Source: a virus
Taxonomy: Duplodnaviria > Caudoviricetes
IMG/VR virus record: IMGVR_UViG_3300023055_000010
Location: 1-44,696 of that record
Length of the DNA stretch: 44,696 nucleotides
Strand: one strand, 5' to 3'
The notes below the pieces were generated by a model, which ran no database searches, was not told where the DNA came from, and saw only the letters and a program-made list of their open reading frames with translations. Below are positions 1 through 27,690 of the stretch, in pieces (within the stretch, counting starts at the first letter, position 1; every line of letters begins with the position of its first letter). Position numbers and translations under genes: made by a program.

Positions 1-109
1 GCCTGTCGGTTGGCTAAGTCCAAAGTTAAAACCAAATAAATCGACTACGCATGTAGAACTGGTTGCGGAGGGCTTGCGGACGGGGGTTCAATTCCCCCCG
101 GCTCCACCA
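1..109 (+). ncRNA. ssrA: tmRNA, 3' portion (truncated by the window edge)
   Basis: Ends in a tRNA-like T-arm and acceptor, GACGGGGGTTCAATTCCCCCCGGCTCCACCA. The upstream sequence (…GCATGTAGAAC…) resembles proteobacterial tmRNA rather than a tRNA. Confidence 0.9.
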
Positions 110-112
110 AAT
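81..112 (+). repeat. att core, left copy: CGGGGGTTCAATTCCCCCCGGCTCCACCAAAT
   Basis: Identical to 44028-44059 and overlaps the tmRNA 3' end. Confidence 0.95.
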
Positions 113-122
113 ACTCTAGCAA

Positions 123-135
123 TATCAAGCACTTA
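123..135 (+). promoter_or_regulatory. IHF-binding site in the att arm
   Basis: TATCAAGCACTTA matches WATCAANNNNTTR, 10 bp from the att core. Confidence 0.6.
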
Positions 136-136
136 G

Positions 137-169
137 AAAAGGCCAACCCTAAAAGTTGGCCTTTTTTTT
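137..169 (+). terminator. Intrinsic terminator supplied by the phage downstream of ssrA
   Basis: AAAAGGCCAAC-loop-GTTGGCCTTTT, with a T8 tract in total. Confidence 0.85.
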
Positions 170-180
170 GGGCTGTTTTG

Positions 181-207
181 GGTCAAACGGTCAGCATTTT
201 GGTCAGC
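181..207. repeat. Putative integrase arm-type sites (GGTCA repeats)
   Basis: GGTCAAAC-GGTCAGCATTTT-GGTCAGC. A near copy, GGTCAGCATTTGGTCAAC, lies at 43975-43992 on the other arm. Confidence 0.6.
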
Positions 208-332
208 TTTTATCGTGAACTTGCCCCGCCCACCGCTAGGAATGCAGCCACCTTGGCTAGGGAGGGCAGAACACACCATCAAATGTTACATTGCCGATAC
301 ACCTACAATTTCCGGCGTTGTAACCACGCACT

Positions 333-1400
333 ATGAAAAAGACAACTTTGAGACGACGGCGGCACCTTCGCGCGCAATGTAGGCGCGCTCAAAAGAAGCG
401 CTACCTCCTGAGCCTTCGGCGCAGCCAAGCTGTGGCTCGTTTCAAAAGGAAGCGCCGTGCGACGGCGCGCAGCCTTCGCATCAGCATCCTGGCTCCAGAT
501 CCAATCTTCGCGCGAACTGATGTGGACCGCGCCAAATTGATGCGCTTTCTCAGCAAAGTGGACGCTCATTTAAGCGCTGGGAAGGCCGTCCACTTGAACC
601 TCAGCAAAGTGGAGAATTTCCACGCATGCGGCACCCTGATGTTCCTGTCGCGGATGGACATCTGGCTGGCGAAGTACCCCGGCAAGCTTACGGGAACGTA
701 TCCGGCAAATCAGCGTTCGGAGGAACTGCTTCAGCACGTGGGCCTTCTAAGGGCACTTGGACTTACAGAACGTTGCGCCGTCACACACGAGAACGTTCGA
801 TACTGGCACTACTTCTCCGGCAAGATGGGGGATGCTGCCGTATACAAGCCCCTTACAGAAGCGATCCGCGACAGCATAGTTCATCCTCATAGCCAACTTT
901 TTGGGGATTGCCTGAACGAGGCGGTATCCAATACAGTTAACCACGCGTACGGTTTTGAGACAGAGGACCTCCCGCCCCATGACCAGCGGAAGTGGTGGAT
1001 GCTTTCAGAGGTGAAGGATGAACAGGTTTTCGTCGCAATTTACGATTGGGGAGTATCAATTCCTGCATCGTTGCGCCGTAAACCTGAGTGGAAAGATCGG
1101 TTCAAGCCACGCCACTGGAAAGACTCGAAGCTCATTGAATCGGCGGCAACTAGCCTTTGGACGAGCACGAAGCTGCCATACAGAGGGAAAGGACTGCCTG
1201 AAATGGTAGAATTTTCTAAGAACTTAGCGTCTGGCGGGCTGTCGATATCAAGCGGCATGGGTTCATACGTCTACCACGCCGACGGCAACAGGTTTCATCG
1301 GCACTCATTCAAGTGCCGGATGCCAGGTACATTGGTTCTCTGGCAAATTCCGTTCCGAAAGGAGCGACAGCATGCAAACGAAAATGATCTCCATAGCTAA
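333..1400 (+). CDS. STAS-like + GHKL (HATPase_c) ATP-binding/kinase-like protein (cargo)
   Basis: GHKL boxes: N (NEAVSNTVNHAY), G1 (YDWGVSI), G2 (RGKGL) and G3 (PGT). N-terminal STAS-like segment LNLSKVENFHACG. Very basic N-terminus. Confidence 0.8.
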   Translation: MKKTTLRRRRHLRAQCRRAQKKRYLLSLRRSQAVARFKRKRRATARSLRISILAPDPIFARTDVDRAKLMRFLSKVDAHLSAGKAVHLNLSKVENFHACGTLMFLSRMDIWLAKYPGKLTGTYPANQRSEELLQHVGLLRALGLTERCAVTHENVRYWHYFSGKMGDAAVYKPLTEAIRDSIVHPHSQLFGDCLNEAVSNTVNHAYGFETEDLPPHDQRKWWMLSEVKDEQVFVAIYDWGVSIPASLRRKPEWKDRFKPRHWKDSKLIESAATSLWTSTKLPYRGKGLPEMVEFSKNLASGGLSISSGMGSYVYHADGNRFHRHSFKCRMPGTLVLWQIPFRKERQHANENDLHS

Positions 1401-1695
1401 GGATTTCTCCACGACCCCCGCTGGTCGTCACGCGAAATTTCATCCCGCATCGGGTGAGGCTTTCCGGGATTCCATTTTGCTGCCCGCTCTACGCCAGGGC
1501 GTCGTTACCGTAGACCTGGACGGGACGGCTGGATATGGATCGTCTTTCCTAGAAGAAGCTTTTGGCGGCCTCATCCGTAATGGCCTTGCCGCCGAGACCG
1601 TGCGCCAACGATTGAAGCTCAAGTCTTCCATGACCGTCTACTCTGACCGTATCTGGCGCTATATCGAAGATGAGGCCGAGCGAGTCGCCGCCTAG
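1372..1695 (+). CDS. STAS-like protein (DUF4325 family)
   Basis: VTVDLDGTAGYGSSFLEEAFGGL motif. GGAG RBS at 1361. Overlaps the upstream gene. Confidence 0.85.
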   Translation: MQTKMISIAKDFSTTPAGRHAKFHPASGEAFRDSILLPALRQGVVTVDLDGTAGYGSSFLEEAFGGLIRNGLAAETVRQRLKLKSSMTVYSDRIWRYIEDEAERVAA

Positions 1696-1697
1696 CG

Positions 1698-2183
1698 ATG
1701 GCGGCGTTCCTCGCCCAATACGGCGTCCTAATCGCCGCGGCGGTAGCAATCGCCGGCTGGCAAGTTTCGAACTGGCAGGCAAATCGTAGGGAACTGCGCA
1801 AAGAAGTTCGGCAGGACATTTCGGATCTGCGGAGCGCGGTGGAAAGAGTCTGCGCGGGGGTTCGTGAACACCAGAAGCACGAACGATCTTCACGCGAGGC
1901 AGCCCTTGCCAGTGTTGCGGTCCAACAGGACTTTGTTCTGTTGGAATTGCGCTTAGCCAGAATTCGCGAGCGTCCACGCAAATCGAAAAGCGACGTGTTC
2001 GTCCAAGAGATCCGCAACAATCAAGAACGGTTCTTCGACCTCTCAACCGGCGATCTGATCGATGGAAGCGTCATGTTGACCCCTGACCAGGTGCAGAACT
2101 TGGTGACTGAACAGCACGTCACTGCTGCTCAGCTTGAGCACGGTCTCATGAAATTTTTCTTTTCCGAGTTCGACGCTCACTGA
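1698..2183 (+). CDS. Membrane-anchored hypothetical protein (single N-terminal TM plus helical domain)
   Basis: Hydrophobic GVLIAAAVAIAGW then a charged helix. Starts 2 bp after the STAS gene stop. Confidence 0.75.
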   Translation: MAAFLAQYGVLIAAAVAIAGWQVSNWQANRRELRKEVRQDISDLRSAVERVCAGVREHQKHERSSREAALASVAVQQDFVLLELRLARIRERPRKSKSDVFVQEIRNNQERFFDLSTGDLIDGSVMLTPDQVQNLVTEQHVTAAQLEHGLMKFFFSEFDAH

Positions 2184-2274
2184 CGTTCCCTCATGTAAGT
2201 TTGGGGGGACGCTAGGCTGCTCGTGTAAAGCCCGTCAACACTTCCAGCGCGGCCAACAAAGCATTGGGGGGTCC

Positions 2275-2937
2275 ATGTGTAGCCACTACCAAACCCTGAA
2301 AGACGCCGAACTGCTGCTGAAGAAGTTCGGTGTGACCCGGCCGGGCGTGCTCGGCAAGTACGACATGTGGCCGCGCTACCAGGGCATCTTCGTCCGTCGG
2401 CCGCCAGAGCATGACGCCGGCGACGAGGCCGTACCCGGCATCGAAGCCGTGACGGGCCGTTGGGGCCTGATATCTGGTTCCACCCGGCCGGACGCGCTAC
2501 CCGGCGCGGAGAAGCTGTCCACCTTCAACGCCCGCGACGACCGCGTTGCCAACGCCTTCACCTTCCGAAACGCCTGGCGCCGGGCGCAGCACTGCATCAT
2601 CCCTGCCGATGCAATCTTCGAACCCGACTGGCGATCCGGCAAGGCGGTAGCCACGCGTTTCACCCGGGCCGACGGCGCGCCGCTGGGCATAGCCGGGCTG
2701 TGGGATCGCTATCGCGATGCGGGCGGCCAGTGGCAGGATAGCTACACGATGCTCACCATCAACGCCGATCAGGATCCCCTCTTCCGCGACTACCACCAGC
2801 CCAACAAAGAAAAACGCATGGTGGTGATCCTTCTCGAGGGCGCGTATGGAGACTGGCTGACCGCCAGCGCCGATCAAAGCCGCGATTTCCTCGTACCCTT
2901 CCCCTCCGACAAGCTGGTCGCCACACCGATGACCTGA
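2275..2937 (+). CDS. SOS response-associated peptidase (SRAP/YedK/HMCES family)
   Basis: N-terminal MCSHY (catalytic Cys2), plus RWGL, FNAR, CIIPADAIFE, IAGLW and H…KRMVVIL. Confidence 0.92.
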   Translation: MCSHYQTLKDAELLLKKFGVTRPGVLGKYDMWPRYQGIFVRRPPEHDAGDEAVPGIEAVTGRWGLISGSTRPDALPGAEKLSTFNARDDRVANAFTFRNAWRRAQHCIIPADAIFEPDWRSGKAVATRFTRADGAPLGIAGLWDRYRDAGGQWQDSYTMLTINADQDPLFRDYHQPNKEKRMVVILLEGAYGDWLTASADQSRDFLVPFPSDKLVATPMT

Positions 2938-2958
2938 CCCCGATTCTGCTGCAATATA

Positions 2959-2974
2959 CTGTATATCCATACAG
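2959..2974. promoter_or_regulatory. LexA (SOS) box
   Basis: CTGTATATCCATACAG fits CTGT-N8-ACAG, with TA before it and an AT-rich spacer. Lies 18 bp upstream of the ATG at 2993. Confidence 0.85.
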
Positions 2975-2992
2975 CCATGTCGCAGCAGAATC

Positions 2993-3301
2993 ATGCTTTG
3001 CTCAGTCGTCAGAACCCATTACCTCGGGCAAAAGCGCCGAGACAACGACCCCGCGCCCGCGGTCAGCGGCACCGTGCGGATGTACTCGATCACGCGCCAA
3101 GACATGCGGCGTCAGGTGCGCATCATGACGATGGATGGCCTAGCCAAGTTCGGCGCGACGGCTAAAGGGCCGATCCCTGACCTACTCGAGCCAGAACTGC
3201 TCACTTTCTGTTCTGACAGGGGGATGATGGTCTGCGGCTTCGAAGAAATCGACGGCCGGCGCTACTACCAAGGCTGGTGGATGCAGTGGATCGAAAAGTA
3301 G
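2993..3301 (+). CDS. Hypothetical protein, probably SOS-regulated
   Basis: 102-aa ORF directly downstream of the LexA box. Converges tightly on the spanin gene (3 bp gap). Confidence 0.7.
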   Translation: MLCSVVRTHYLGQKRRDNDPAPAVSGTVRMYSITRQDMRRQVRIMTMDGLAKFGATAKGPIPDLLEPELLTFCSDRGMMVCGFEEIDGRRYYQGWWMQWIEK

Positions 3302-3304
3302 GCG

Positions 3305-3808
3305 TTACCGACTCCGAGACACTGCCCTAGCCCACGCATCCCCCTCCCTCAGTCCGTCGATGATTGCGTCAGCGTCTCCTGCCAGCGCTGCATATTCATC
3401 CGTGCACGCTTTGAGAACATCCCAGGCTCGGGTGGCGGCTTGTTCAGAGAGGCCGGCGCGGGCGGCTTCTTTGGCGGCTCGGGCGCGCTGGACGGCAATG
3501 GCGTCGCGCAAGCTGCCAGCTGCACCAGCAGCAAGGTCACGCTCAGCATTCGAAAGACGGATCGCTTCATTGGCTTCCTCAAGGCGGCGCATGTAGGCGG
3601 CCGCCATTTCATGTTCCTGGCGCCGGTACTGCGCCTCGATCTGACGGGCATTAGCTGCCGCGGCCAACATCGTATATTCCACGCCCGCGCGATATTGCCT
3701 TGCACCGTGCGCGTTCCAGGCCACGACACCCGCCGCAATCAGTGCGGCGCCGGCGAGCCCCGCCGCGCCATAGGCTTTCCAGCCCGTCACTCTTGCAAGC
3801 ACACCCAT
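3305..3808 (-). CDS. Rz-like inner-membrane spanin
   Basis: N-terminal TM followed by coiled coil, downstream of the endolysin. Confidence 0.8.
   Translation of the reverse strand: MGVLARVTGWKAYGAAGLAGAALIAAGVVAWNAHGARQYRAGVEYTMLAAAANARQIEAQYRRQEHEMAAAYMRRLEEANEAIRLSNAERDLAAGAAGSLRDAIAVQRARAAKEAARAGLSEQAATRAWDVLKACTDEYAALAGDADAIIDGLREGDAWARAVSRSR
3349..3570 (-). CDS. Rz1-like outer-membrane lipoprotein spanin embedded in Rz
   Basis: MKRSVFRMLSVTLLLVQLAAC signal peptide and lipobox, Pro-rich mature part, GAGGAAG RBS, alternative frame inside Rz. Confidence 0.8.
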   Translation of the reverse strand: MKRSVFRMLSVTLLLVQLAACATPLPSSAPEPPKKPPAPASLNKPPPEPGMFSKRARMNMQRWQETLTQSSTD

Positions 3809-4281
3809 GTGTTGGCCTCCCTACGCGTCACCAAGCCGGGCAACGTCACCATCACGCCGTTTTGCCGCCCCTTAACCCAGCGGTTCAGTTCCGCGCATCC
3901 GCCGACGTAATCGCGTGCGTTGAACTTGCGCCGCATGGTCGACGAAGCTAAGTTGCCGGCGCCCAGGTTGTACGTGAAGTCGATCAGGGCGGCGCGCTGC
4001 CAGTCGTTCAGCGGCACCGTGATCAGACGGCGCACAGCGGCGTCCGCCTCCGCCAGGTCAGCATCGCGCCAGGCGTCGCACTCGGCATCTGTATAGATCC
4101 GCTTCGGGTCGATGTCGCCCCCCGTATGACCATCGCAGACGGTCAGCACACCGACGGGGTCGATGTAGGGTTTACCGCGTACCTTGCCCGGCTCGAAGTG
4201 CGCGACCAGCACGCCCGCGATGGCGATGGCGCCGGCGCTGCCCGCCGCCAGCAGCTTCCGTTTCAGACTACCCAAAATCAT
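3787..4281 (-). CDS. Endolysin, GH24 lysozyme with a probable SAR domain
   Basis: E…D…T catalytic region (HFEPG…YIDPVGVLTVCDGHT), FTYNLG and GLVTRREA motifs. Gly/Ala-rich N-terminal hydrophobic segment. Alternative start at 4296. Confidence 0.92.
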   Translation of the reverse strand: MILGSLKRKLLAAGSAGAIAIAGVLVAHFEPGKVRGKPYIDPVGVLTVCDGHTGGDIDPKRIYTDAECDAWRDADLAEADAAVRRLITVPLNDWQRAALIDFTYNLGAGNLASSTMRRKFNARDYVGGCAELNRWVKGRQNGVMVTLPGLVTRREANTWVCLQE

Positions 4282-4562
4282 TTGATTCCCCTCCATGCCG
4301 AATAGGCGGTGATGATTGCCGTGCCCAACCCAACGATGTAGGCCAAGGGCTTTGCCACTCTGCCGAGTCCCTGCAGCACCTTGAACCCACCAGACAGCGC
4401 CTGGAACGTGTCAACGATGTCCTGTGTGTTCTGCCGGATCGTCTCGATCGAGGATGTGTTCCGGGCGGTTGCTTCTGCATTGCTTGCCATGTCCTGCTCC
4501 ATCTGCACGACGCGAGCGTGCAGCGACTTTATGAAGGCGTCCGACAGATGCTCGTCAGCCAT
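4278..4562 (-). CDS. Putative holin
   Basis: 94-aa protein with a coiled coil and C-terminal TM, immediately upstream of and overlapping the endolysin. Confidence 0.6.
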   Translation of the reverse strand: MADEHLSDAFIKSLHARVVQMEQDMASNAEATARNTSSIETIRQNTQDIVDTFQALSGGFKVLQGLGRVAKPLAYIVGLGTAIITAYSAWRGIK

Positions 4563-4604
4563 GGGACTTCCTTTGAAGCGACAACATCGCGTCTCCTTGA
4601 GACG

Positions 4605-4629
4605 AAAAAAATGCCCGCACATGGCGGGC
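4605..4629 (-). terminator. Intrinsic terminator between tail and lysis genes
   Basis: On the minus strand: GCCCGC-loop-GCGGGC-A-T7. Confidence 0.65.
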
Positions 4630-4654
4630 TGAATATGAATACGATGGGTAGCGG

Positions 4655-5323
4655 CTATTGCCACCCTGTCACGTCAATTACGGCGATGTCGTTCTCCTCC
4701 GCATCACTCACGAAGCGCGTGTTGAAGAGCGGGGCCCATCCGTAGAATGCGCCCACCTGATCCTGCATCTTGGAATAGACGCCGGTGCTGCGTGCGGCGT
4801 AATTCTCGCCCCACAGCACAGAACTCCAGCCGCCCCCTGGCACGGGATAGCACTGATACCCGCGCCGGTTGAACGACGGGCAGTAGGCCCATTTGCGCGC
4901 TGGTAGGCCGCCCACCTCCATGCCGTCGATGTAGCCGCTCCCCGTGCCGTCCGAGTTCCAATATCGGGGGATGCGCAGGTTGCCGTAAACGTTCATCGGC
5001 CTAGCCGTACTCATGAAGATGTGCCGGCCGTCCTGCGCCCATATGTCCATCGGGCCGCCGGTGACCCACGGCCAATCGAATATGTAGTATTCGACGGCCA
5101 CCCCCACAAACGTCACGGTGAATGTGCCGTTCCCGTTGTTCAGCAGGCTCCGCATTGTTGCGAAGCCGCCCCCGGTGGGCACGAAGAAAACCACAGGCCG
5201 TACAGCAGCGAACGAAAACGCACCGCTGGCAGTGCCCATGTACCGCAGGAACATGTTGACGTTGCGACTATCGCAAAGCAGGTTTCCGGCTTGATCCCAC
5301 AGCTCGAATGCAGCATCCGCCAT
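4655..5323 (-). CDS. Tail-tip accessory protein
   Basis: Start MADAAF is coupled to the upstream stop. Beta-rich. Position downstream of the central fibre J. Confidence 0.6.
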   Translation of the reverse strand: MADAAFELWDQAGNLLCDSRNVNMFLRYMGTASGAFSFAAVRPVVFFVPTGGGFATMRSLLNNGNGTFTVTFVGVAVEYYIFDWPWVTGGPMDIWAQDGRHIFMSTARPMNVYGNLRIPRYWNSDGTGSGYIDGMEVGGLPARKWAYCPSFNRRGYQCYPVPGGGWSSVLWGENYAARSTGVYSKMQDQVGAFYGWAPLFNTRFVSDAEENDIAVIDVTGWQ

Positions 5324-5610
5324 CACTTCACCCCCCACAGCACCAGCATGTTTGCCCGCTGCGTGTTGGGCTCCGTGACAAACGACCAGGAGATAACTGC
5401 GCCGCTTCGCTTGATAGTCGGATAGTTGGTTCCACCGCTTGCCGCGGTGGCCAGAAACCACGAGTTTCCAGTGTCAGCGAGCTGCGGAATGCTAACGCTC
5501 CCGCTACTCGTGCCGGTGTAAAACTCGCCAAGCTGGCGGGCAATCCGCATCCCTGCGCTGAACAGCAGGACTCCAGAGGGGGACCACAATTCAAGGGGCA
5601 TGACTGCCAT
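5323..5610 (-). CDS. Small tail-tip accessory protein
   Basis: 95 aa directly after J. N-terminus (LELWSPSGVLL) resembles that of the next gene (FELWDQAGNLL). Confidence 0.6.
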   Translation of the reverse strand: MAVMPLELWSPSGVLLFSAGMRIARQLGEFYTGTSSGSVSIPQLADTGNSWFLATAASGGTNYPTIKRSGAVISWSFVTEPNTQRANMLVLWGVK

Positions 5611-5612
5611 GT

Positions 5613-8600
5613 CTACGACCCTCCAAAGCGCGCGCCGAGGACGCCATTGGGGTAGTAGTACCGCATGCCCCGGTTGTTGATCTCCGTCCGCGATCCGTCC
5701 GCCTCCGTGCCGTTGAACGACATAAGGCCGGAGCGCATGTTCAGGTTGAACACGGGCACACCGCTGGGATTGAGAGCATCGGAGCTGAGGTTGTCCTTGA
5801 GGTTGAGGGCCCCAATGGTGGCGCGGCCGATGATTGCCTCGTTCATGAACACCTGCCCGCCCTGCACCACAAAAGGCGCCTTCACGGATCCGGTGGATTC
5901 GTCCAGGATGGCCACGCGCGCCGCAGCCAGCAGAATCTGCGACGTGATGACGCCCTGGTTGTTCTCGACGCCCACGCCGATGCCGGCGAGGTACGGCACA
6001 CCGCCCACCGTGAGCTGGGTTTTGATGGTGTACATGGCCGCCAGGGAATTTACGATGGCGTCGATCTGCACCTGAGCATCGCCGGCTTCGTCAATCCGAT
6101 CCAGCAACGCCTGGGCGAGCTGGGTTTCGGTGATCTGGCCGGTGAGATATTCCAGGATCTCGTCCGCGCTGTTGCTGGACGTGCCAATGACGCCCGGATT
6201 GCCCACGGGGAAAAAGTCTCCTGGGATGCCGGTGCGATCCACCAGCCGGGCCCAAAAATAAAGGCGCTTGCCGGCAGACAGCCCCATCAGGTCATGGGTG
6301 TTTTGCGGGAACGCGAACTCGCCCATCTTGATCGCGCTGCCCTGGTTCTGCGATTCCGAATACCAGATTTCCGTCCGCTCGATGATGTAGTTGCCGGCCG
6401 GAAAGCCCCAATTGAGCCGGATGCCGAACACCATCCCTTGGGCGGTCAGGTGCGTCACCTGCGGCGGCGGAAGGACGTTGCCCTCCAAGTCGGTGGACGC
6501 GGACATTCCCCATGCAGAAGGGATGTTCGCTGCGTTGATGGCGCGCACCCGCGCGAGGTATCGGCCGATGCTGATGCCCCGGATCTCGACGGACGCGGAC
6601 GCCGTGCGCCCCGCCTCAATCCAGTCCGAACTGTTACGCCGCCACTGGACTTGATACTCCACCGCGTCCTGCACCTTGTCCCAAGTGATGAGGGCGTTGT
6701 GGGTTGCAATCGTCTGATCGAGCGTCGAATAAGATGACAACGCCACGTTCTGCGGCGCCGGCATGACCATGGGCGGTATGACCGTGATCGGCGGATTCTC
6801 CAGACGCGTGCCATAGTCCACGGCGTCGTACTTGCCCGGGACGTGCTGCACGGCCGTGATCGTGGCATTGAGAACGTTTTCCCGCGTGATGCTCACGACG
6901 CGGAAGAGCTGGGTTGAAAGCTCCTCGGACTCGATAGTCCACACCGCCTCGGGCTCAGGAATCTCGGTAAACGGCTGGGTGACGGTGATTTCCAGGGTTG
7001 CGCCTTGGATACCGATCATGTCAGCTGTGATCTCCGTGCTGTCAGCAGTCCAGATAGTCTGGTCAGCGGTGATCATCGTGCCCACCGCGCCCTGGATGAT
7101 TCGGGTTTGAGTGAGCCCGTTGGGCATATTCAGGATCAGGCGATCTCCGGACCGCACCCCCACGGCCAGATCCACCACGATGGTAGTCGCAGTTGCAGAA
7201 TGGATCCGGCCGCCAATACGACGCCCAGCGCGGTTCTTGTCGGCGATGCGTATGACGGAGCCAGGTTTCACAACAGCCTGCTCCAGCCCCACGCCGAAGG
7301 TCACGCCCTGCGTCTCGCGCTGTGAAGAGACGAGAGCCCACTTTCCGGCGCGCACGGCCTGGCCGCGGGACGTGCAACCGAACGCCGTCATCTGGTACAT
7401 GCGAACGCCATAGCGGGAAATTGCATCCCGGTCTTCTACCGCCTCCATCTTGGCGATGCCCTGATTGCTGCTGTCGTTCCAGGACACCTGCACCACCGTA
7501 TACCGGGTTCGGCGCGGGCTGCCGGCGTAGCCGAACCGACCATCCAGCACATTCGCATTGGTGAAGTTGTAGACAGGGTCCGAAGGAATGTCGGCGGACG
7601 CGGCAATGGAGCCATTCATCTCGTAGACGATTCCGCGGAACACGCTGGCCAGATCCGACATTACGCGGTAGGCGTCCGCCGCCTGCTGGATGTACACGTT
7701 GCAGGTAAACCGAGGCTCCATGCCACCGAAGCCGTCGGGCACCTGCTCATCGCAATACTGGGAGACAGGGTAGAGCTGCCATTTGGCCATGGACAGCCGC
7801 ACTGGATCCAAGAACGCCCCGGCGCCATAGCGCTGATTCGTCACCATGTCATACCAGATCCACACGGGGTTATTGGTCCACGCCTGCTTAAACGTCCCAT
7901 CCCAAACGCCGGTATAGGTCCGCGACTCCGGATCGTAGTTGCTTGGCACTGCGATGATGCGGCCGCGGAATCGGTACGCGCGTGTCGGAATCGCCGAAAA
8001 CTGGCTGGCATCAATTTGGATGCCAACCGCGGCGGACATCGGCATGCGCAGCTTCGCATCCAGCACGTTGGTGATGGATTGGATCCAGGTATCGTTTGTT
8101 AGCGTATCCGTGGCGGAGTCGATGGAGAGCCGGCGCACGCGAACAACCCACCCCGTCTGCGCGCCCTGCGGCAAGTCAATGCGGTGGGTCCGCGCGTAGG
8201 ACTGCGTCGTCTTCCCATCGAATGCCGACACGACAACCTCCTGGAACGGCCCGCCATCGGTCTGCAGGTCAATGGCGTAATCCACGCGCGCTCCCCCGCG
8301 GTCCCCATTGCCGGTATCCACCTGGAGCAGCCCCCTCACCTCCAGCGTGATGCGGATGGCCGACAGCGTGCGATCCGTGACCGTCTGGACCCAGGGGACG
8401 CCATACTTCAGTTCGACGCCCAGGCCGGTAGTGCTCTCTGCGGCCGGGAAACCCTGGATGTAGTCCTGCGCCTGCGTGCCTTTTCGAAAATCCACGCGGA
8501 CGCCCTGGAAGTTGAGCGAACCGTCTTCGTTCTCTATGGGCGTTCCATCGAGGTAGATACTGCGCAGGATGGAGTTCAGACCCGTCACAGGGCCCACGAT

Positions 8601-8804
8601 GGGCCCCTCGCTGATCAGGTCCAGGACCTTGGCGTAAGAGATGCTGTGCAGGCTGTCAGGAGCCTCCACGGGAGAGCGAGCGCCGCCCCCGCCCTTGCCG
8701 CCCTTGCGGCCGACAATCGTGATCCCGCCTTGGCGTGCAATGTGGCGCATGGGCCCATCAATAGAAAACCCGCCGGCTTCGGCGGGTGAAAGTAGACGTT
8801 GCAT
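5613..8804 (-). CDS. Central tail fibre / tip attachment protein (lambda gpJ-like)
   Basis: DLISEGPIVG, VPSNYDP…WDGTFKQAWTNNP, EPRFTCN, GCTSRGQA, FN3 region and DUF1983-like C-terminus. Start may be 8750. Confidence 0.93.
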   Translation of the reverse strand: MQRLLSPAEAGGFSIDGPMRHIARQGGITIVGRKGGKGGGGARSPVEAPDSLHSISYAKVLDLISEGPIVGPVTGLNSILRSIYLDGTPIENEDGSLNFQGVRVDFRKGTQAQDYIQGFPAAESTTGLGVELKYGVPWVQTVTDRTLSAIRITLEVRGLLQVDTGNGDRGGARVDYAIDLQTDGGPFQEVVVSAFDGKTTQSYARTHRIDLPQGAQTGWVVRVRRLSIDSATDTLTNDTWIQSITNVLDAKLRMPMSAAVGIQIDASQFSAIPTRAYRFRGRIIAVPSNYDPESRTYTGVWDGTFKQAWTNNPVWIWYDMVTNQRYGAGAFLDPVRLSMAKWQLYPVSQYCDEQVPDGFGGMEPRFTCNVYIQQAADAYRVMSDLASVFRGIVYEMNGSIAASADIPSDPVYNFTNANVLDGRFGYAGSPRRTRYTVVQVSWNDSSNQGIAKMEAVEDRDAISRYGVRMYQMTAFGCTSRGQAVRAGKWALVSSQRETQGVTFGVGLEQAVVKPGSVIRIADKNRAGRRIGGRIHSATATTIVVDLAVGVRSGDRLILNMPNGLTQTRIIQGAVGTMITADQTIWTADSTEITADMIGIQGATLEITVTQPFTEIPEPEAVWTIESEELSTQLFRVVSITRENVLNATITAVQHVPGKYDAVDYGTRLENPPITVIPPMVMPAPQNVALSSYSTLDQTIATHNALITWDKVQDAVEYQVQWRRNSSDWIEAGRTASASVEIRGISIGRYLARVRAINAANIPSAWGMSASTDLEGNVLPPPQVTHLTAQGMVFGIRLNWGFPAGNYIIERTEIWYSESQNQGSAIKMGEFAFPQNTHDLMGLSAGKRLYFWARLVDRTGIPGDFFPVGNPGVIGTSSNSADEILEYLTGQITETQLAQALLDRIDEAGDAQVQIDAIVNSLAAMYTIKTQLTVGGVPYLAGIGVGVENNQGVITSQILLAAARVAILDESTGSVKAPFVVQGGQVFMNEAIIGRATIGALNLKDNLSSDALNPSGVPVFNLNMRSGLMSFNGTEADGSRTEINNRGMRYYYPNGVLGARFGGS

Positions 8805-8812
8805 TGTTGCCT

Positions 8813-9415
8813 CTACGCTTGGTCTTCGGCATAGATGCCGGCGGAGACTACCGCGCTCCCCGCCCAGCATTCACCGTAATGGAGAGGTACGCAGTTCCCT
8901 TGCGCGGTGGTGTTGACCGCGCCATTGAAGTTGTAGGACGCGCCGTTGTTGGGACTATCCTTGGTCGAAAGCCCGGTCTGCGTGGGACTCAGCATCTGGA
9001 TAGCCCCACCCAACCCGATGACGGCGCCCATTTTCATGAGCGAAGTCCCGAACGCGGCCATCGTGCCCGAGCTGAGTACGTTGATCACTGCGCCCACGGC
9101 CACCATGGCCGCGCCTAGGATGGTCTGAAAAACGCCCCCGCGCTTCGCCCCCTGAATGACAGGCGCGAATCGGATTTCTTCACCGTCAGCGGGCGCGTGC
9201 TGCAGATCCTGCTCCGCGATATTGCGTCGACCGAGAAACACCGCATATCGAACGCCGTGGCTGCCGGAGGAGATCATCTCCTTTTCGAATCCCGGAAGGA
9301 TCGCGCAGAGAGCTTGTACAGCCTCGGCCGCACTTCGCACAGCCAGCCGGTGGACGCGGCCGAATCGCGTGCCCAGCAGGCCGTACAGCCGGATGGTGCG
9401 GAGCTGGTTATTCAT
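8813..9415 (-). CDS. Tail assembly protein (lambda gpI-like)
   Basis: TIRLYGLLGTRFGR, IRFAPVIQGAK and SYNFNGAVNTTAQGNCVPLHYG motifs. Confidence 0.9.
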   Translation of the reverse strand: MNNQLRTIRLYGLLGTRFGRVHRLAVRSAAEAVQALCAILPGFEKEMISSGSHGVRYAVFLGRRNIAEQDLQHAPADGEEIRFAPVIQGAKRGGVFQTILGAAMVAVGAVINVLSSGTMAAFGTSLMKMGAVIGLGGAIQMLSPTQTGLSTKDSPNNGASYNFNGAVNTTAQGNCVPLHYGECWAGSAVVSAGIYAEDQA

Positions 9416-10211
9416 TCGACGCCTCCCGATGTCGCAACACCAGGCGCGTGATCTCCTGCCAGTAGCCGCCATACACCTCGCGAGTGGACAGCCGGCCGTA
9501 GAGGTGATGGAGCATGGTCCCCTGCATAGGGAACAGGTCCGGGCGCTCGGAAAGCCGGCCGTCGCCCAGGTAGACGGCGCCGTGATTGGTGCGCTTGGCA
9601 AGGTGATTCATGAGGATCACGTCCCCACGTTGCACGGTTTCGCCCGCGGCCAACGGCCGGAAGCCTGCGGCGGCGAAGTTGTCCAGGTAGACCTCCTCAT
9701 CGCCCTCCCACCAGCCATCAGCGCGCGGGAAGTCAGGGAGGTGAATCCCCATCTCTCGCGCGTGAAAATCGCGAATCACGCTGTAGCAGTCCAGGACGCC
9801 GTGATGGAATGTGCGTCCCAGCAGCGGCGCCTGATAGCCCGTCGGGGAAAACGCCTCAATGGCAAGCGCTTGGGGCGTGTCCTGACAAATGTCCTTGCGC
9901 ACCTCGACGATGTACCAGGGTATCGCCCCTACCCGCTCGGCCATGGCCTCGCAGGCCACCAGATCCGCCTCCGATGGCGAGGCCGTGTTATCCGGGTGCG
10001 AATGGACAAAGGCCACCACCGCGCCCATATCCTCAGCCGCTGCCCAATCGTCCGGGCGCGTTACGAAGCCGGCATCCGGCGCATCGGCCACGTTCTGGCC
10101 GCGCACATAGATTTCGCGGCCGTCGGAATCGGACACGACGAAGCCAACACATTCCGCGGGATACGCCTCCTCGGCGTGGCAGCGCATGGCTGCGAAAGTT
10201 GCTTTCTTCAT
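9408..10211 (-). CDS. Tail assembly protein (lambda gpK-like; JAB/MPN + NlpC/P60)
   Basis: YPAECVG, VHSHP…PSEAD, GVLDCY, NHGAVYLG and MLHH motifs. Confidence 0.92.
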   Translation of the reverse strand: MKKATFAAMRCHAEEAYPAECVGFVVSDSDGREIYVRGQNVADAPDAGFVTRPDDWAAAEDMGAVVAFVHSHPDNTASPSEADLVACEAMAERVGAIPWYIVEVRKDICQDTPQALAIEAFSPTGYQAPLLGRTFHHGVLDCYSVIRDFHAREMGIHLPDFPRADGWWEGDEEVYLDNFAAAGFRPLAAGETVQRGDVILMNHLAKRTNHGAVYLGDGRLSERPDLFPMQGTMLHHLYGRLSTREVYGGYWQEITRLVLRHREASNE

Positions 10212-10212
10212 G

Positions 10213-10959
10213 CTATCGAACCCGATCAGCAGCGGGGAACCCGCCAAAGTTGATGACAGCCGCCACCGGCTCCACGCCCTGCTCTGCCCCAAAACGAAGC
10301 TGACACGAGCGCACCAGACCGGCGCAGTTGTCCTGGTCAGGGCTGGATACGGGCCGGTCTTGGCCGTCGAAATATGCGGACCCCGTGTACTGGCAGTACG
10401 GGCCGCGATAGCCACCTATCCATTTCCACGGGCAGATGGTCGCCACGATCTGGCGCCCTGGTAGCTGGCGCCCATCGAACGCCAGGCCCGTCGCAAGCTC
10501 GAACTCAACCACCTCGGGCGTTTCGTTCAGCTTCTGTTCGACCAGCCAAACCTCAAGCGGCAACTCCTCGCCGGGGTCATAGTTAGGGTTGCCGTCCGGA
10601 AAGTTCGCGGGGTCAAGATACTTGGCAAGCGTCTCGCGCACGGTCAACACGCAGCCCACAAGATCGTCCATGGCGATGCACAGCGAGGAGATCACGCCGG
10701 CGATCGGCTCGCCGTTCTCATCCTCACCGATGTTGCCGACGGAGAGGGTTGGCGACGGCTGGGACGCTTCGCCCGTACGCTGAAAATCGCGGGCTTCCAA
10801 CGCCCAGGGCGTGTACTCCTGTCCCTTCCAAAAGATCGGGCCGCTTTGGTTGTAGTTGTGAAAGCGAAGGACCGGCCCGCCCTGGTTGCTGGTGTCCAGC
10901 TCAAACAGGCGCACCGCATCCCCCGGCTCCAGTTTCTGGATGTCGGTGATGATGCTCAC
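10213..10959 (-). CDS. Minor tail protein (lambda gpL-like)
   Basis: IQKLEPG, YLDPANF, four conserved Cys (CPW…YRGPYCQY…C…C) and FGGFP. Confidence 0.92.
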   Translation of the reverse strand: MSIITDIQKLEPGDAVRLFELDTSNQGGPVLRFHNYNQSGPIFWKGQEYTPWALEARDFQRTGEASQPSPTLSVGNIGEDENGEPIAGVISSLCIAMDDLVGCVLTVRETLAKYLDPANFPDGNPNYDPGEELPLEVWLVEQKLNETPEVVEFELATGLAFDGRQLPGRQIVATICPWKWIGGYRGPYCQYTGSAYFDGQDRPVSSPDQDNCAGLVRSCQLRFGAEQGVEPVAAVINFGGFPAADRVR

Positions 10960-10988
10960 GAGGGGATTTCCTACAGATGGTTGCCCGG

Positions 10989-11417
10989 TCAGGCCTTGAT
11001 GCTGCCGGCGAGAATGAACAGCGCGTCCAGGTCCGCCGACGTGAGGCGGAGACTGTCCGCCACCGCCTGGAGCATTTCGCTGTCGCGGTGGAACTCTTGA
11101 AGATCGTCCCAGGCGCGCCGGTATATCGCGGGCGTTTCCGGGCTAGAAATCACGCCCTCCGCCGCCTCGAAAAGCGATCCACCTCCGTGGGGCGTCTGCC
11201 ACATGGCCTCCCGGCCTTGAAAGCGGCTGACCACCTGCGGGACGTATGGCGAGGCTGGCTCGGGGGGGGGCAATTCCGACGCAACAAGCGTCACTGGCAC
11301 GTCTAAAGCCTCGCCGTACGCGGTAGTGAAAACCAGCGCGCCGCCGGAGTCGGAAACCAGAACGTCGTCATCAAATTGCCAGTATTGGCCGGTTTCCGTG
11401 TCTTTGAAGGTTTTCAT
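10989..11417 (-). CDS. Tail fibre assembly/chaperone-like protein
   Basis: Follows the fibre gene. VPQVVSRFQGREA and LDALFILA motifs are typical of fibre-associated proteins. Confidence 0.6.
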   Translation of the reverse strand: MKTFKDTETGQYWQFDDDVLVSDSGGALVFTTAYGEALDVPVTLVASELPPPEPASPYVPQVVSRFQGREAMWQTPHGGGSLFEAAEGVISSPETPAIYRRAWDDLQEFHRDSEMLQAVADSLRLTSADLDALFILAGSIKA

Positions 11418-12838
11418 TATCGATACTCCGTCCACGAGGAAATGCTCGCGGAAGACGCCGCGCAAATATACGTTGCCCCCGCTGGGATGATGAGCGTCAG
11501 GCCCACCGCTGCACCTGATGTTGGATGCGTAGACATGCCGCAAAAAGCCCCGTTTACGTTGGCCGAGAGGTTCCCAAATGCCGCCGTCAGGTCGCCTCTG
11601 ATATACGCGATGATGGGGCGCCCCGTGGTGTTCGTGTAATTGACACCTGAAGCGCGCGACGCGAGAACGTTTTGCAAGGTCTGACCCACGCCAAGGGTCT
11701 GCGCCATCTGACCCGTAAGCGTCGAAATCTGACCGGCCATCGTCGTGCTGTCAGCTTGTCGCGCCACCTCTTGCCACGTCCCCCAGGTCGCCGACGTACC
11801 AAAGCGAACGCGAACAAATCGACGGATCACGCCGCCGGTACCGTTGCGCGTCGTGTATGTCTGCGTGATTTGCAGATTTCCGGTGCCGACGGCCTCTACC
11901 TGCAACGTTCCGGCCAGCAACACCGGCCAGTTAAGCGCGGCGGTAGCCTGCGCGTCCGAATTGAGAAAGTAGAAGCCCGGGAAAACTGCCGTGTTTGCGT
12001 CCGTCCCGGCGGCAAGCGGTTCACAAAAGGCATGCTGATGCGCCAGTCGGACATTCCCGTCCAGCGTGGCCAAACCGCCGGCCGCGCCTAGCAACGACGA
12101 GCGCAAAAACTCCTCCCAGGCGGACCAAACGCCACCCACCAGAGAGCGGAAAAATTGCCGGTTCCCGTTGCTGCCGATATACACCTGATTGACGTTCGTA
12201 CCGGCAGCAGCACCGGCGGCCGCTTCGCAGTACACCAGCAGCCAACCGGAGTTTGCAATGGGGAAATTCGTACCGCCGGCGGCCGTGGATGACGCTGAGA
12301 TGGCCCACATCCCCCGGTTGGCGTAGTTGTTCAAGTTCGCGCCGGCTTCTACACGGCCCAGGTAGGGCAGAGAGTTGCCGGCGGTGTGGACCTCTTGCCA
12401 CGGCGACCATGAAGTATTGATTGCCATCCGCCAGTATTGGCGCGCGCCGGCCGTGGGGGAAACTGGGCCCGTAGAGGCGACCGTGTACCGTTGAACGGTC
12501 TGCCCGGACACTCCGGTCCCCTCTACCGAGAGAATCCCGCCAGTTGCCTGCGGATAGTTGGTGCCCGCCTGCGCGCCGGCGGTGGATGCCTGGCGATAGC
12601 TGCCGGGCAGTTGATAGTTGTTCAGATCATGGGCAGTTGCGGGCAGCGTCTGCACCGCCGGAGCCTGACCAGGCAGGAGGCGACCATCAGCGCCCAGCGT
12701 GGCAAAGCCGCTTGCCGCGCCGAGCGCGTTGGCAATGGTGTCCATGTTCTTGTTGTGCTTGGCGAACGCATCGCGGGCCGGATCTCCGGTGCCGTCGTTG
12801 GGCGCTGCGCCAATGTTGATTCTCACAAGCGAATCCAC
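11417..12838 (-). CDS. Side tail fibre / receptor-binding protein with three pyocin-knob-like repeats
   Basis: N-terminal INIGAAPNDGTGDPARDAF. Three units start DLNNY/NLNNY/DANT…G(S/M/F) and end W(S/G)xWxE. Confidence 0.82.
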   Translation of the reverse strand: MDSLVRINIGAAPNDGTGDPARDAFAKHNKNMDTIANALGAASGFATLGADGRLLPGQAPAVQTLPATAHDLNNYQLPGSYRQASTAGAQAGTNYPQATGGILSVEGTGVSGQTVQRYTVASTGPVSPTAGARQYWRMAINTSWSPWQEVHTAGNSLPYLGRVEAGANLNNYANRGMWAISASSTAAGGTNFPIANSGWLLVYCEAAAGAAAGTNVNQVYIGSNGNRQFFRSLVGGVWSAWEEFLRSSLLGAAGGLATLDGNVRLAHQHAFCEPLAAGTDANTAVFPGFYFLNSDAQATAALNWPVLLAGTLQVEAVGTGNLQITQTYTTRNGTGGVIRRFVRVRFGTSATWGTWQEVARQADSTTMAGQISTLTGQMAQTLGVGQTLQNVLASRASGVNYTNTTGRPIIAYIRGDLTAAFGNLSANVNGAFCGMSTHPTSGAAVGLTLIIPAGATYICAASSASISSWTEYR

Positions 12839-12846
12839 GGTTCCCC

Positions 12847-13182
12847 CTACGGTTTAAATACTTGCTGGAAGGTGGCGGACACTCGGTAAACGTCCCCGCC
12901 TATGTGGGCCAGGTTGAAACTCGGCGCCTCATACAGGCCTTCTTCGCCGAGGGGCGGAGTCCAGAAGAACGATCGAACGCCGGCATGCCTGCGCAAAAAT
13001 GTGGCCACGGCTTGCATTTCCTGCCTGCTGCCTGCGAACGTGAGCGGCCAGGACTGGACCTCAGTGTTGATGCCGTCGCCGACCACCTGGCGATAGCCGT
13101 CTCCGAACTGCGCGGTCAGCCGTCTGAATGTGACGCTGCCGGTAGGCTCGCCCGTGGCCCTCCATGAAAATCGTTCAGTCAT
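12847..13182 (-). CDS. Distal tail protein (lambda gpM-like)
   Basis: QFGDGYRQVVGDGIN, FLRRHAGVRSFFWTPP and ATFQQVF motifs. Confidence 0.9.
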   Translation of the reverse strand: MTERFSWRATGEPTGSVTFRRLTAQFGDGYRQVVGDGINTEVQSWPLTFAGSRQEMQAVATFLRRHAGVRSFFWTPPLGEEGLYEAPSFNLAHIGGDVYRVSATFQQVFKP

Positions 13183-15977
13183 CAGGACCTCCCATTCCTG
13201 GCGTTCCAAGCCGCACCACCCTGCCGATGTGAGCGATCCACGACACGTTGCGCGACTACTTCCATCTGTCTGAGCATTTCGCGCCCGAGGGCATCGTCAT
13301 GGCCGGACTCGCGTGACTCGCGCCCGCCGTCGCTAAAAATCACTTGGTTGGTGATCTGGTAACTGGCCCCGGCCCCAGCAGAGCCGCCAGTCGCGCTGTT
13401 CTTCAGAGGCGTGACGTAGCCGCCGTTCTCACCGCTCATCAGGTACGTTTGGCCTCCTTCGGTGTACAACTCGGGACCCAACTCCCTGACGCGGTAGAGC
13501 GAATTTGCTGCCGTTGGACCGCCAGAAGCGCGACCACCAGACAGGTTCCAGCCCGTCATGCCGTCTGTGTTGCCCACAGCCGCCATTCCGGTGCCCTGGT
13601 AGCTTGCCCCGGCCGATATGCCGCTGGTCGCCGCTCCTGCAAGCAATCCAGCGAAATTGCCTACCATCCCGACGATTGCCTGGCGCGCCGCGATCCTGGC
13701 CAAGTCGGCAATTACGGAAGTGGCGAAGTCCTTGAACGAAAGCTTCCCGGTCGTCACGAAACGGACGATTGCGTCCTCCATGCCTTGGAAGGCGTTGGAA
13801 AACAACGCTTTCGTCTGCGCAGCCACGTTGGCCGCCGAGTCTTGGTAGTTCTCGAGAGCGGAAGTGGCGCCGTTCTTCCAATTGCCCTGCGCCTCGCGCA
13901 CCTCGTCGAAATACTGCTGCTGCATCGACAGGCGAAGATTCAGGTGTTCCTGCAGGAGCGCTGTCTGGCTCTGGTAGGTCTCCTGAGAGATCTGACCCGA
14001 CGCCATCGAGCGGTCGAACTGCGCCTGCTGGCGCTGATAGTCCCGCAAGATCACCTGGCGTGCACGAAGCTCCTCCTGCGCGCGGTCACCCAGTCCCACG
14101 CCGGCCACCTGGTCGGCATACTGCTGCTGCTCCAGATCCCGAGTCGCGGCCAAGCTGGCGCGCAGAGCTTCGACCTTGGCAGTTTCCTGCTTGGTGCGTA
14201 GCTCCTTCTCTGCGGCCACATTCAGATCAAGTTGGCGGCGCAGCAGATCCTGCTGAGCGAGCAGACTCTTTTGATCCGCAGTCAGGACCTTCTTGTCCTT
14301 CAGATCTGCGATCTGCTGCTCGAACTCGGCACGCTTCTGGCCCCAGGTGGCAAGTTTCCCCTCGCTGGTGATTTGGGCCTGAAGGGAGGCTTCAGCCTCG
14401 CGGTACTGCTGCAAGAGCTTGGTCGCGGCGTCCTCCGTGTACGCCTTGACCGCCGGGTCCTTGTACTTGTCGTTGATCTGATCAATCAGCTTCTTCTGCG
14501 TTTCAAGGGACGCGCCGGTGATATCGGCGTCCTTCTTGACCTGGGCAATCTCGCGCTCGCGCTTTAGCTGATTGGTCTCGGTCTCCTTTGCTAGGGCAGA
14601 CAGACGGGCCGCGGCGGCGATCTTCTCGGCCTCCTGGCGTTTCTGCCAGCCCACAATTGCAGCTTGGTCGGCCTGATCCTGGAGCGCTGCGGCCTCAGCG
14701 ATCAGGCGGCGGCTTTCCTGCTCAAGCGGCCGGGCGCGCCGGCGCGCACCGCGACCACCGTCTCCGAAGAACGCCTGAGATTCGTCCGTCTGCGAAGTCG
14801 CGTTAGCGCGCATCTGGACCAGCTCGGCGTTGACGGCGCGCAGCTTATCGGTGAGATCGTCAAAGCTCGGAGGGCGCCCCAGGCTCTTCATCGCTTCCCA
14901 GGCGTTGCTGGCGCCCTGCCTGACCGCATTCCAAGCCGTCTCCAGCGTCCCCAGGTTCTCCCGCACTTCCGCAGCCTGCTGCTTCACGGCGTCCGCATAG
15001 ATGCGCTGCGCCAGCGTCGCTGCTTCCTGGCTGCGCCCCTGCCGCTCCAGGCTTGCGATCTGCTGATAGATCTCCAGCGTCAGGAAATGCTGCTGCTCGT
15101 TCAGCGCGGCGATGGCCTCCGCCGGCTTACCGCGCAGCGTTTCGAACTCCTGCACCGTGTCGGAAATGGCTTTCCCGGTGACGCGGTTCATCGCAACAGC
15201 TGCTTCCCCGACCACCGCGAAGTTCTCCCCGGCAATCTTGCCCGAAGCTGCGATCAGATTGAGCGCATCGACGGCCTTCCCGCGAGCCCCCGCCACGTCC
15301 GCGATGCGAGTGGCCAGGTTGGACATACCGGCGGCAGTCTGCCCGGCTGCGTTGCCGCTCAGAATCAGAGTGTCGGTGAATTCTTGCTGCTCGCCCTTGC
15401 CCGAGGCGAGAGCGGTAGAAAAGATGGCAACCGCCGCGGCGGCGACTGTCCACGGGTTCACCAGACCCATGATCGTGGAGCCCAAGGCTCGCGCCGCCGG
15501 CACGATGCCGCCGAACATATCCTTCAACTGGCCGCCCTGCTGCAGCAACACCGTGAGGGGCTGCTGACCACCCTGCAAGGAAACTACGATGTCCGTGAGC
15601 TGCGCGGGCACGCCACGCAGCGCTGCTGCCTGCTGTGCGGCGCTCACCCCATACTGATTCATCTGCTTGGTGGCGCCGGCTGCGGCCGCCCCGGTCGCCG
15701 ACAGCTTGGTTCTAAGCTCGTCCAGAATCGACGTGGGCACACCGCGCAGGGCAGCGTTGTAAAGGATCTGCTCCTTCCGGGTCATGCCGATGGTGTTGGC
15801 CTGGTTCACCAGGGCGTCAACACGGCGGCGCTCAGCGGCTGCCAGCTTCGTATAGTCCGCCTGCGCGGACTGCGACATGTCGCTGGTGCCGCGCTTGGCC
15901 GAAGCGATCGCGGCGTCGAACTGCGAGGTATCGACGACGATATCTAGCCGCGCGGTGCCAATGCTTTCCTGTGCCAT
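13182..15977 (-). CDS. Tail tape measure protein
   Basis: Long Ala/Gln-rich helical protein with PAQLTDIVVSLQGGQ…LLQQGGQLKDMFGG and a lambda-type C-terminal block. Confidence 0.95.
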   Translation of the reverse strand: MAQESIGTARLDIVVDTSQFDAAIASAKRGTSDMSQSAQADYTKLAAAERRRVDALVNQANTIGMTRKEQILYNAALRGVPTSILDELRTKLSATGAAAAGATKQMNQYGVSAAQQAAALRGVPAQLTDIVVSLQGGQQPLTVLLQQGGQLKDMFGGIVPAARALGSTIMGLVNPWTVAAAAVAIFSTALASGKGEQQEFTDTLILSGNAAGQTAAGMSNLATRIADVAGARGKAVDALNLIAASGKIAGENFAVVGEAAVAMNRVTGKAISDTVQEFETLRGKPAEAIAALNEQQHFLTLEIYQQIASLERQGRSQEAATLAQRIYADAVKQQAAEVRENLGTLETAWNAVRQGASNAWEAMKSLGRPPSFDDLTDKLRAVNAELVQMRANATSQTDESQAFFGDGGRGARRRARPLEQESRRLIAEAAALQDQADQAAIVGWQKRQEAEKIAAAARLSALAKETETNQLKREREIAQVKKDADITGASLETQKKLIDQINDKYKDPAVKAYTEDAATKLLQQYREAEASLQAQITSEGKLATWGQKRAEFEQQIADLKDKKVLTADQKSLLAQQDLLRRQLDLNVAAEKELRTKQETAKVEALRASLAATRDLEQQQYADQVAGVGLGDRAQEELRARQVILRDYQRQQAQFDRSMASGQISQETYQSQTALLQEHLNLRLSMQQQYFDEVREAQGNWKNGATSALENYQDSAANVAAQTKALFSNAFQGMEDAIVRFVTTGKLSFKDFATSVIADLARIAARQAIVGMVGNFAGLLAGAATSGISAGASYQGTGMAAVGNTDGMTGWNLSGGRASGGPTAANSLYRVRELGPELYTEGGQTYLMSGENGGYVTPLKNSATGGSAGAGASYQITNQVIFSDGGRESRESGHDDALGREMLRQMEVVAQRVVDRSHRQGGAAWNARNGRS

Positions 15978-25868: not shown

Positions 25869-26192
25869 ATGACCGAGACAAACCACGAAGGCGGGCCAGA
25901 ACGTGCCACTACCACTGCGCAATTTGATCCCAAGGGCCAAAACCCGGTGACGGAGCTGGCAGCACAAGGCGGAGGATGCCTGGGCTTCGTTCTTTGTCTG
26001 ACGATTGTGGGGGCAGTCGTCGGCCTTCCGATGATTCTTGCCGATCTTCGGCGCAAAAAAACCGGGTCTTTCACCGGCAAATGTCCCCACTGCGACTCGA
26101 AGCTGGTCATCTACGGTGACCAGGAGGGAGTCGACTGCAGGACCTGCAAAGGTAGAGTGGTCCGCAAAGACGACGTCTTCCATGCCTTTTAA
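25869..26192 (+). CDS. Moron: membrane protein with a C-terminal zinc ribbon
   Basis: One TM segment, then CPHC…CRTC. Opposite strand to the late operon. Confidence 0.65.
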   Translation: MTETNHEGGPERATTTAQFDPKGQNPVTELAAQGGGCLGFVLCLTIVGAVVGLPMILADLRRKKTGSFTGKCPHCDSKLVIYGDQEGVDCRTCKGRVVRKDDVFHAF

Positions 26193-26394
26193 GAGCCTGG
26201 CGACCCTTGATACCCTAAACGCCGGTGCCGGATTGGAATGATCTTGCCGGGTGTATCCACTGCTAGCCCTTCGGCGATGACCGAATCCCCGCACGCCATG
26301 CCCGGCGCGCGGCGCCTTGATAGCGATACCTGGAGCCATAGTTGTACGCATCTGCTATGGTTACAAGTTCCTACACTTGACGATAGAGGCGCAT

Positions 26395-26840: not shown

Positions 26841-26856
26841 CACTGACCTCAAGTTA

Positions 26857-26890
26857 AAAGCCCCGACCGGAGTAACCGTGTCGGGGCTTT
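26857..26890. terminator. Bidirectional terminator-like hairpin
   Basis: AAAGCCCCGAC…GTCGGGGCTTT inverted repeat. Confidence 0.6.
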
Positions 26891-27652: not shown

Positions 27653-27690
27653 CGTTGGACGCAGTAATACACCGTATCCGTTAGGCGCCC

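Follow-up and report, generated by a model that had tools for sequence, protein, structure and literature searches.

Next to its attachment site, a prophage carries three genes that encode a STAS-GHKL kinase, a stand-alone STAS protein and a predicted membrane-anchored helical protein; together they constitute a fixed, widespread and uncharacterized unit. In our judgment there is an even chance that this trio is a toxin-antitoxin switch that is released by phosphorylation and serves phage defense. Kinase-STAS switches as a type have already been described, and the trio itself has already been catalogued, in both published cases without a mechanism or name being attached to these three genes.

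The analyzed window, a DNA stretch of 44,696 nucleotides, is the whole prophage record IMGVR_UViG_3300023055_000010, integrated in tmRNA; judging from its named close relatives, it probably comes from a host within the Burkholderiales. The relevant features are:

1 to 109, + strand: 3' end of the tmRNA gene, the integration target (Rfam RF00023, 84.6 bits, 5' end truncated)
81 to 112, + strand: left copy of the att core, 32 bp, an exact direct repeat of 44028 to 44059
113 to 332, + strand: leader region, in which no promoter was identified
333 to 1400, + strand: gene 1, basic helix, STAS-like segment and SpoIIAB-type GHKL kinase (355 aa; phrog_3364, E 5e-42)
1372 to 1695, + strand: gene 2, stand-alone DUF4325 STAS protein (107 aa; Pfam E 7e-14)
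1698 to 2183, + strand: gene 3, predicted membrane helix and four-helix bundle (161 aa; from the ORF call, conserved motifs and a structural model)
2275 to 2937, + strand: SRAP family gene, outside the conserved unit (Pfam E 2e-28; GC 0.649)
42826 to 44025, + strand: tyrosine integrase (Pfam Phage_integrase E 5e-15, Arm-DNA-bind_2)
44028 to 44059, + strand: right copy of the att core, the repeat of 81 to 112, beside the integrase

The first-pass annotation had described the three genes as a tightly coupled cargo operon next to att, opposite to the virion genes and poorer in GC, and this description held throughout. Genes 1 and 2 overlap by 29 bp and genes 2 and 3 are separated by 2 bp, while the ORFs at 3305 to 8870, to which lysis and tail roles were assigned by reading, lie on the - strand. 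The GC content of the trio is 0.552 vs 0.619 in the remaining prophage, and 6 of 201 equal-size segments were as low. A promoter scan of positions 1 to 3400 gave no sigma-70 consensus match, and a weak terminator-like site was seen at 157 to 175, inside the leader region. Directly behind the trio (2275 to 3301) lie the SRAP gene and a 102-aa ORF without a Pfam match, neither of which is conserved beside the trio elsewhere. Three further features of the prophage were recorded: a second low-GC stretch at 26001 to 29000 (0.525 to 0.575), a cargo candidate whose ORFs at 27016 to 27513 (- strand) and 27867 to 28328 (+ strand) have no Pfam match; an Rfam tRNA match at 35883 to 36001 (+ strand; 48.4 bits), which at 119 nt is longer than a usual tRNA, drew no call from ARAGORN and could represent a tRNA that is interrupted or degenerate; and three degenerate repeats with 22-nt spacing at 30651 to 30729, possibly replication-origin repeats.

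Linkage of the trio was assessed by entering from each of its genes. Among viral contigs entered through the STAS gene, of which the best 80 of 244 were kept (7 repeat earlier contigs), a gene 3 relative lay directly after the STAS gene in all 79 loci with room for one (68/68 distinct STAS sequences), and a kinase lay upstream in all 70 with room. When 13,633 open frames were searched with the gene 3 profile, each of the 127 matches stood directly behind a STAS gene (126 by script, L018 by inspection). All 24 genome loci found through the kinase contain both other genes, a partly circular count, since 21 of these loci went into the gene 3 profile. Entry through gene 3 gave matches in 5 of 400 sampled genomes, with the STAS gene upstream in 5/5, G379 being without a kinase match. 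As exceptions, L036, L049, L132, and L133 have a divergent gene in third position that scores weakly or not at all with the profile. Swapping of gene 3 for other effectors, which the first-pass annotation had listed as a point to check, was not seen within the trio clade.

A Pfam-driven sample placed the trio among other DUF4325 architectures. DUF4325 was found in 38 of 401 genomes, giving 42 matches, of which 30 loci were fetched and 29 examined (the seed genome was dropped). Among the matches listed (29 loci), at least six are trios, at least four have a PIN-like third gene, recognized by motif reading alone, and at least five comprise kinase and STAS without an evident effector; the remaining loci among these matches are fusions or are cut by contig ends. 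An association of DUF4325 with a PIN family is on record in the part of the literature available (PMC5499597). The effector-less pairs include L138, L139, L157, L158, and L160, and long single chains ending in STAS occur in L140, L142, L148, L159, L161, and L165; phrog_5816 is likewise a long single-chain fusion ending in STAS. In a quick tree, a branch supported at SH-aLRT 100 separates 37 of 91 trio kinases from four putative VapK and five effector-less kinases. Some loci depart from the usual arrangement. IS3-like elements interrupt the kinase end at two loci (L021, 6786 to 7939; L134, 2270 to 3402) and one STAS copy (L047) has an internal stop; in these cases decay of the trio begins at the kinase side. 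One locus (L103) has two trio-family STAS genes on opposite strands within 2.4 kb, with a gene 3 relative after each, and on large Vibrio replicons an orphan STAS gene of the trio clade (L131, 5007 to 5348) lacks an annotated upstream kinase and is followed by another kind of membrane protein.

In the model of gene 1 (pLDDT 87.9), residues 6-48 form one long helix, accompanied by an alpha/beta domain and a GHKL domain, with domain limits of about 49-145 for the STAS-like part and about 155-341 for the kinase. The Pfam matches to STAS_2 (62-105, E 0.012) and HATPase_c_2 (193-253, E 0.005) are both below the Pfam cut-off, and the top solved-structure match in a fold search is SpoIIAB (E 5.9e-6). 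Model and fold search describe a GHKL serine kinase fold without a His-phosphotransfer domain, and without an N-terminal HTH, the single helix occupying that position. E196, N200, H204, D238, G240, G285, and G287 are invariant in 91/91 non-redundant trio kinases, indicating that the ATP site is under selection; three extra aromatics, W221, W222, and W337, are also invariant in this set. The GHKL boxes reported in the first-pass annotation have intact catalytic residues, and the STAS-like N-terminal segment, with FHACG in place of the serine motif, was recovered with FHACG at 96-100. PADLOC profiles for DrmA weakly matched 5 of 46 kinases.

The basic N-terminus had been proposed as a sensor of nucleic acid or of an acidic phage protein. 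Of 86 trio kinases, 72 have a basic extension, defined as at least 12 K/R within the 48 residues preceding the first strand, and it is absent from a subclade of short kinases of about 305 aa (14/86). The helix is a candidate sensor of an infection signal, but since the short clade retains the trio, it is dispensable for keeping the three genes together. The position mapped to VapK F54/CapK W68, by spacing from the N-box Asn and alignment to four putative VapK, is Asn95 in gene 1 and is aromatic in 14 of 91 trio kinases, whereas it is W or F in three of the four putative VapK. The VapK trigger is therefore not to be assumed for the trio, whose own trigger may differ.

Gene 2, the DUF4325 STAS protein that had been noted for keeping its G-S-S-F motif, carries this motif as G56-S57-S58-F59, and both serines are invariant in 27/27 relatives. 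In the four STAS proteins that precede PIN-like genes, the first serine position is S or T and the second P or A, so that S57 is the predicted phosphoacceptor. By homology with SpoIIAB/SpoIIAA and VapK/VapS, the gene 1 kinase very probably phosphorylates gene 2. At 107 aa the protein is too short to accommodate a wHTH.

Three known kinase-STAS arrangements can be compared with the trio. SpoIIAB/SpoIIAA and RsbW/RsbV share the kinase fold and STAS acceptor, but the trio kinase has an extra STAS domain fused to it and the trio itself includes neither a sigma factor nor a phosphatase. CapK and CapS likewise pair a STAS-GHKL kinase with a STAS substrate, with the GHKL Asn and the STAS Ser conserved; they differ in that the trio kinase lacks the HTH, the trio STAS lacks the wHTH and no immune operon follows the trio, the next gene in the window being the SRAP gene. 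As gene 2 has no wHTH and its kinase no HTH, gene 2 is not expected to be a transcriptional repressor. In the available sections of the description of these systems, CapK is activated by ssDNA, and once the STAS serine is phosphorylated, either a repressor or the VapC nuclease is set free; the VapKSC operon gave about 2-log protection against one phage, and an S48E substitution abolished antitoxin action (Chambers 2026, EMBO J; PMC13373217). VapKSC is the closest parallel: the order is a STAS-GHKL kinase without HTH, a stand-alone STAS protein with a conserved Ser/Thr and then a third gene, the STAS proteins of both types match DUF4325 and gene 3 occupies the slot held by VapC. Against this, the third gene of the trio encodes a predicted membrane-anchored helical bundle rather than a PIN nuclease, the trio kinases form a separate clade (SH-aLRT 100 in the quick tree with four putative VapK), the ssDNA aromatic, mapped by spacing and alignment, is mostly absent and most trio kinases have a long basic N-terminal helix. 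On these grounds the trio is not a member of VapKSC. Presence of vapC was a condition for inclusion in the published vapKSC set, and a membrane-protein variant goes unmentioned in the sections seen of that article (PMC13373217). By analogy, the trio nevertheless likely works like VapKSC while standing outside VapKSC and CapKS by their defining features. VapKSC provides a proven precedent for a kinase-STAS pair gating a toxic effector (PMC13373217). The switch model of the first-pass annotation is plausible and partly supported.

The product of gene 3 belongs to a family of its own, with 1,025 clusters (counted at 50% identity) at E 0.001 or better and 546 at 1e-10, for which no match was found in Pfam, NCBIfam or PADLOC. 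It had been described as a single-TM helical protein. The helical part stands: the model (pLDDT 95.4) is all-helical, with a long first helix spanning the hydrophobic stretch and three more helices following. The membrane segment is a prediction, placed at about 8-25. Hydropathy over 19 residues ranges from about 0.9 to 2.05, so that in some relatives the segment is a modest one; an uncharged run of at least 17 residues is found in 121 of 129. A GW plus RExRKExR motif lies at 20-38, and G20, W21, R31, E32, R34, K35, E36, and R38 are each conserved in at least 124 of 129 relatives. The K/R median is 5 after the uncharged run and 1 before it, a charge bias that suggests an N-out topology with the bundle in the cytoplasm. 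No fold match at E 0.001 or better was obtained in PDB or viral libraries, the best neighbors being generic bundles and periplasmic sensor domains; PDB sequence searches gave nothing meaningful, gene 3 resembles no known toxin, and no Pfam PIN match was found in 26 family members. Matches to an Rz-like spanin (E 7e-4, residues 4-48) and to a PADLOC '1TM effector' (E 0.006, in 1 of 26 members) were set aside as hydrophobic or coiled similarity, and KilB (PF27072), with a feature score of 0.90 but just 138 shared features and an unhelpful literature, is kept as a lead. Seven relatives (P0122, P0146, P0155, P0159, P0164, P0166, and P0181) carry Pro/Ala/Ser-rich N-terminal extensions of 70-95 residues without a Pfam domain.

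From its position and strict co-occurrence, gene 3 is somewhat more probably than otherwise gated by the STAS protein; that it is toxic to the membrane and acts in phage defense is a reading drawn from position, for which the chances seem to us evenly divided. In the proposed sequence of events, unphosphorylated STAS in a resting lysogen would hold gene 3 inactive by binding to its conserved juxtamembrane segment on the cytoplasmic side. An infection signal, likely nucleic acid or an acidic phage product, would be read by the N-terminal part of the kinase, and the activated kinase would phosphorylate Ser57 of the STAS protein and so free gene 3, which would then oligomerize and damage the inner membrane, resulting in abortive infection. 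The roles could also be reversed, with gene 3 sensing an envelope breach or phage membrane protein, or tethering the STAS protein, and the kinase with its basic helix acting as an effector that STAS restrains as SpoIIAA restrains SpoIIAB. The likeness of the gene 3 fold to four-helix receptor sensor domains, the lack of evident catalytic residues in gene 3 and the invariant tryptophans and basic helix of the kinase are all in keeping with this arrangement; yet the receptor resemblance is generic (E > 0.01), the charge bias places the bundle in the cytoplasm and the kinase is the sensor in both characterized relatives, as far as the available sections describe them (PMC13373217). We consider the reversal unlikely.

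The released-effector reading can be set against what has been published on the trio. In the supplementary tables available, it appears unnamed as system 61 of the P2 hotspot (68 occurrences, Table S5B) and system 69 of the P4 hotspot (9 occurrences, Table S1B), annotated HATPase_c/DUF4325 with '1 TM in protein 3' (Rousset 2022; PMC9122126); identity of both with the trio of the window was judged from motifs in the table rows. The STAS motif is absent from the tables of cloned systems in that source, in which cells are shown to 400 characters and STAS proteins are shorter (PMC9122126). Identity of the trio with the three-hypothetical-gene system of the same study was ruled out, given no STAS motif among the cloned systems and no PADLOC match, PADLOC being assumed to include that system. 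PADLOC (2023) profiles matched none of the three window proteins and none of 120 diverse trio proteins, with just weak scattered matches elsewhere. A search of the text and supplement of PMC13586616, as far as available, gave nothing on the trio, and no named description was found in a literature search that reached few subscription papers or bioRxiv supplements. The earlier view that the trio was not a recognized named system is thus correct as to the name, whereas its genes were already in supplements and its switch type is known from VapKSC.

One member has been assayed. According to the parts available, DefensePredictor cloned an E. coli unit, VPUS, in MG1655 and found it non-defensive against 24 phages, the authors noting that negatives may stem from panel or host (PMC13092281). 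VPUS (WP_000154254.1, WP_001244589.1, and WP_000060412.1) matches the trio profiles at E 5e-19, 9e-35, and 3e-10, its accessions match an E. coli trio beside an integrase and, like the rest of the short clade, it has no basic helix, its kinase being 21.5% identical to gene 1. The anti-phage function proposed in the first-pass annotation accordingly has the VapKSC precedent and the hotspot location on its side and a negative screen of a distant member against it. That screen, together with plasmid copies of the trio near ordinary toxin-antitoxin pairs and the remark of the VapKSC authors, in the sections available, that the boundary between stress response and defense is blurred (PMC13373217), would suit an addiction or dormancy module that responds to stress and serves prophage or plasmid maintenance, or that arrests growth upon DNA damage, any protection against phages being lacking or a side effect. 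Recurrence of the trio in the P2/P4 hotspots, which are rich in defense systems (PMC9122126, supplementary tables), argues against such a module, which we consider rather improbable.

The surroundings of the trio also bear on a defensive switch. Around 59 viral loci with 110 crudely called nearest neighbors, an integrase flanks 16 loci and a CI-like repressor lies directly upstream at 10 (raw counts, no background control), and the phrog_68 portal, which we take to be of P2 type, flanks 5 of the 59, likewise with no background control. Downstream neighbors vary and are mostly phage core genes, and copies occur in Marinobacter phage AS1 as well as on plasmids. The accessible gene table of Francisella phage KIRK has a run of a 293-aa, a DUF4325 and a TM protein behind the repressor (PMC7924643). 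Neither a sigma factor nor a phosphatase was found among the nearest neighbors with PHROG matches or the nearest genes in annotated loci, in agreement with the first-pass annotation. Small single-membrane superinfection-exclusion proteins are known, and gene 3 is small with a single predicted membrane segment; a CI-like repressor lies directly upstream of the trio in 10 of 53 upstream neighbors (no background control). Gene 3 might on these grounds sit in the inner membrane and keep phage DNA out while the cell survives, toggled by the kinase-STAS pair, for instance at prophage induction. We think this very unlikely, as the conserved surface of gene 3 is on the predicted cytoplasmic side and exclusion genes are usually solitary.

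Transcript data were also considered. Among 20 soil metatranscriptomes listed by a run search, 12 contained at least half of the words, and in 4/4 RNA runs examined all three genes were bridged by one difference-free contig (starts 83, 83, 172, and 499), for which DNA carry-over is possible. Contig depth was 65-102 over the trio, while positions 3,000 to 15,000 were covered by short scattered pieces of depth at most 7, a pattern compatible with expression in a lysogen. As contig depth cannot rank genes and the runs, which may stem from one campaign, were picked for containing the trio, depth is not counted as support.

Taken further, the switch reading leads to a tentative proposal that we consider less likely than not: that the trio represents a third, so far undescribed branch of the CapK/VapK switch, whose frequency in Pseudomonadota would equal or exceed that of VapKSC. 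Here an anti-anti-sigma-like protein, once phosphorylated on serine, would directly unlock a new family of membrane effectors (more than 1,000 clusters, counted at 50% identity), while an Arg/Lys helix of 45 residues would replace the ssDNA-stacking site and sense another infection signal. Being small and easy to clone, the trio lends itself to study with clear point mutants, and its long and short clades offer a natural test of sensing by the basic helix, a difference that may account for the one negative screen. If the proposal is true, a membrane protein would join transcription (CapKS) and RNase release (VapKSC) among the targets of kinase-STAS control, and a function would be provided both for the large unannotated gene 3 family and for cargo that is common in the P2/P4 hotspots and in other prophages.
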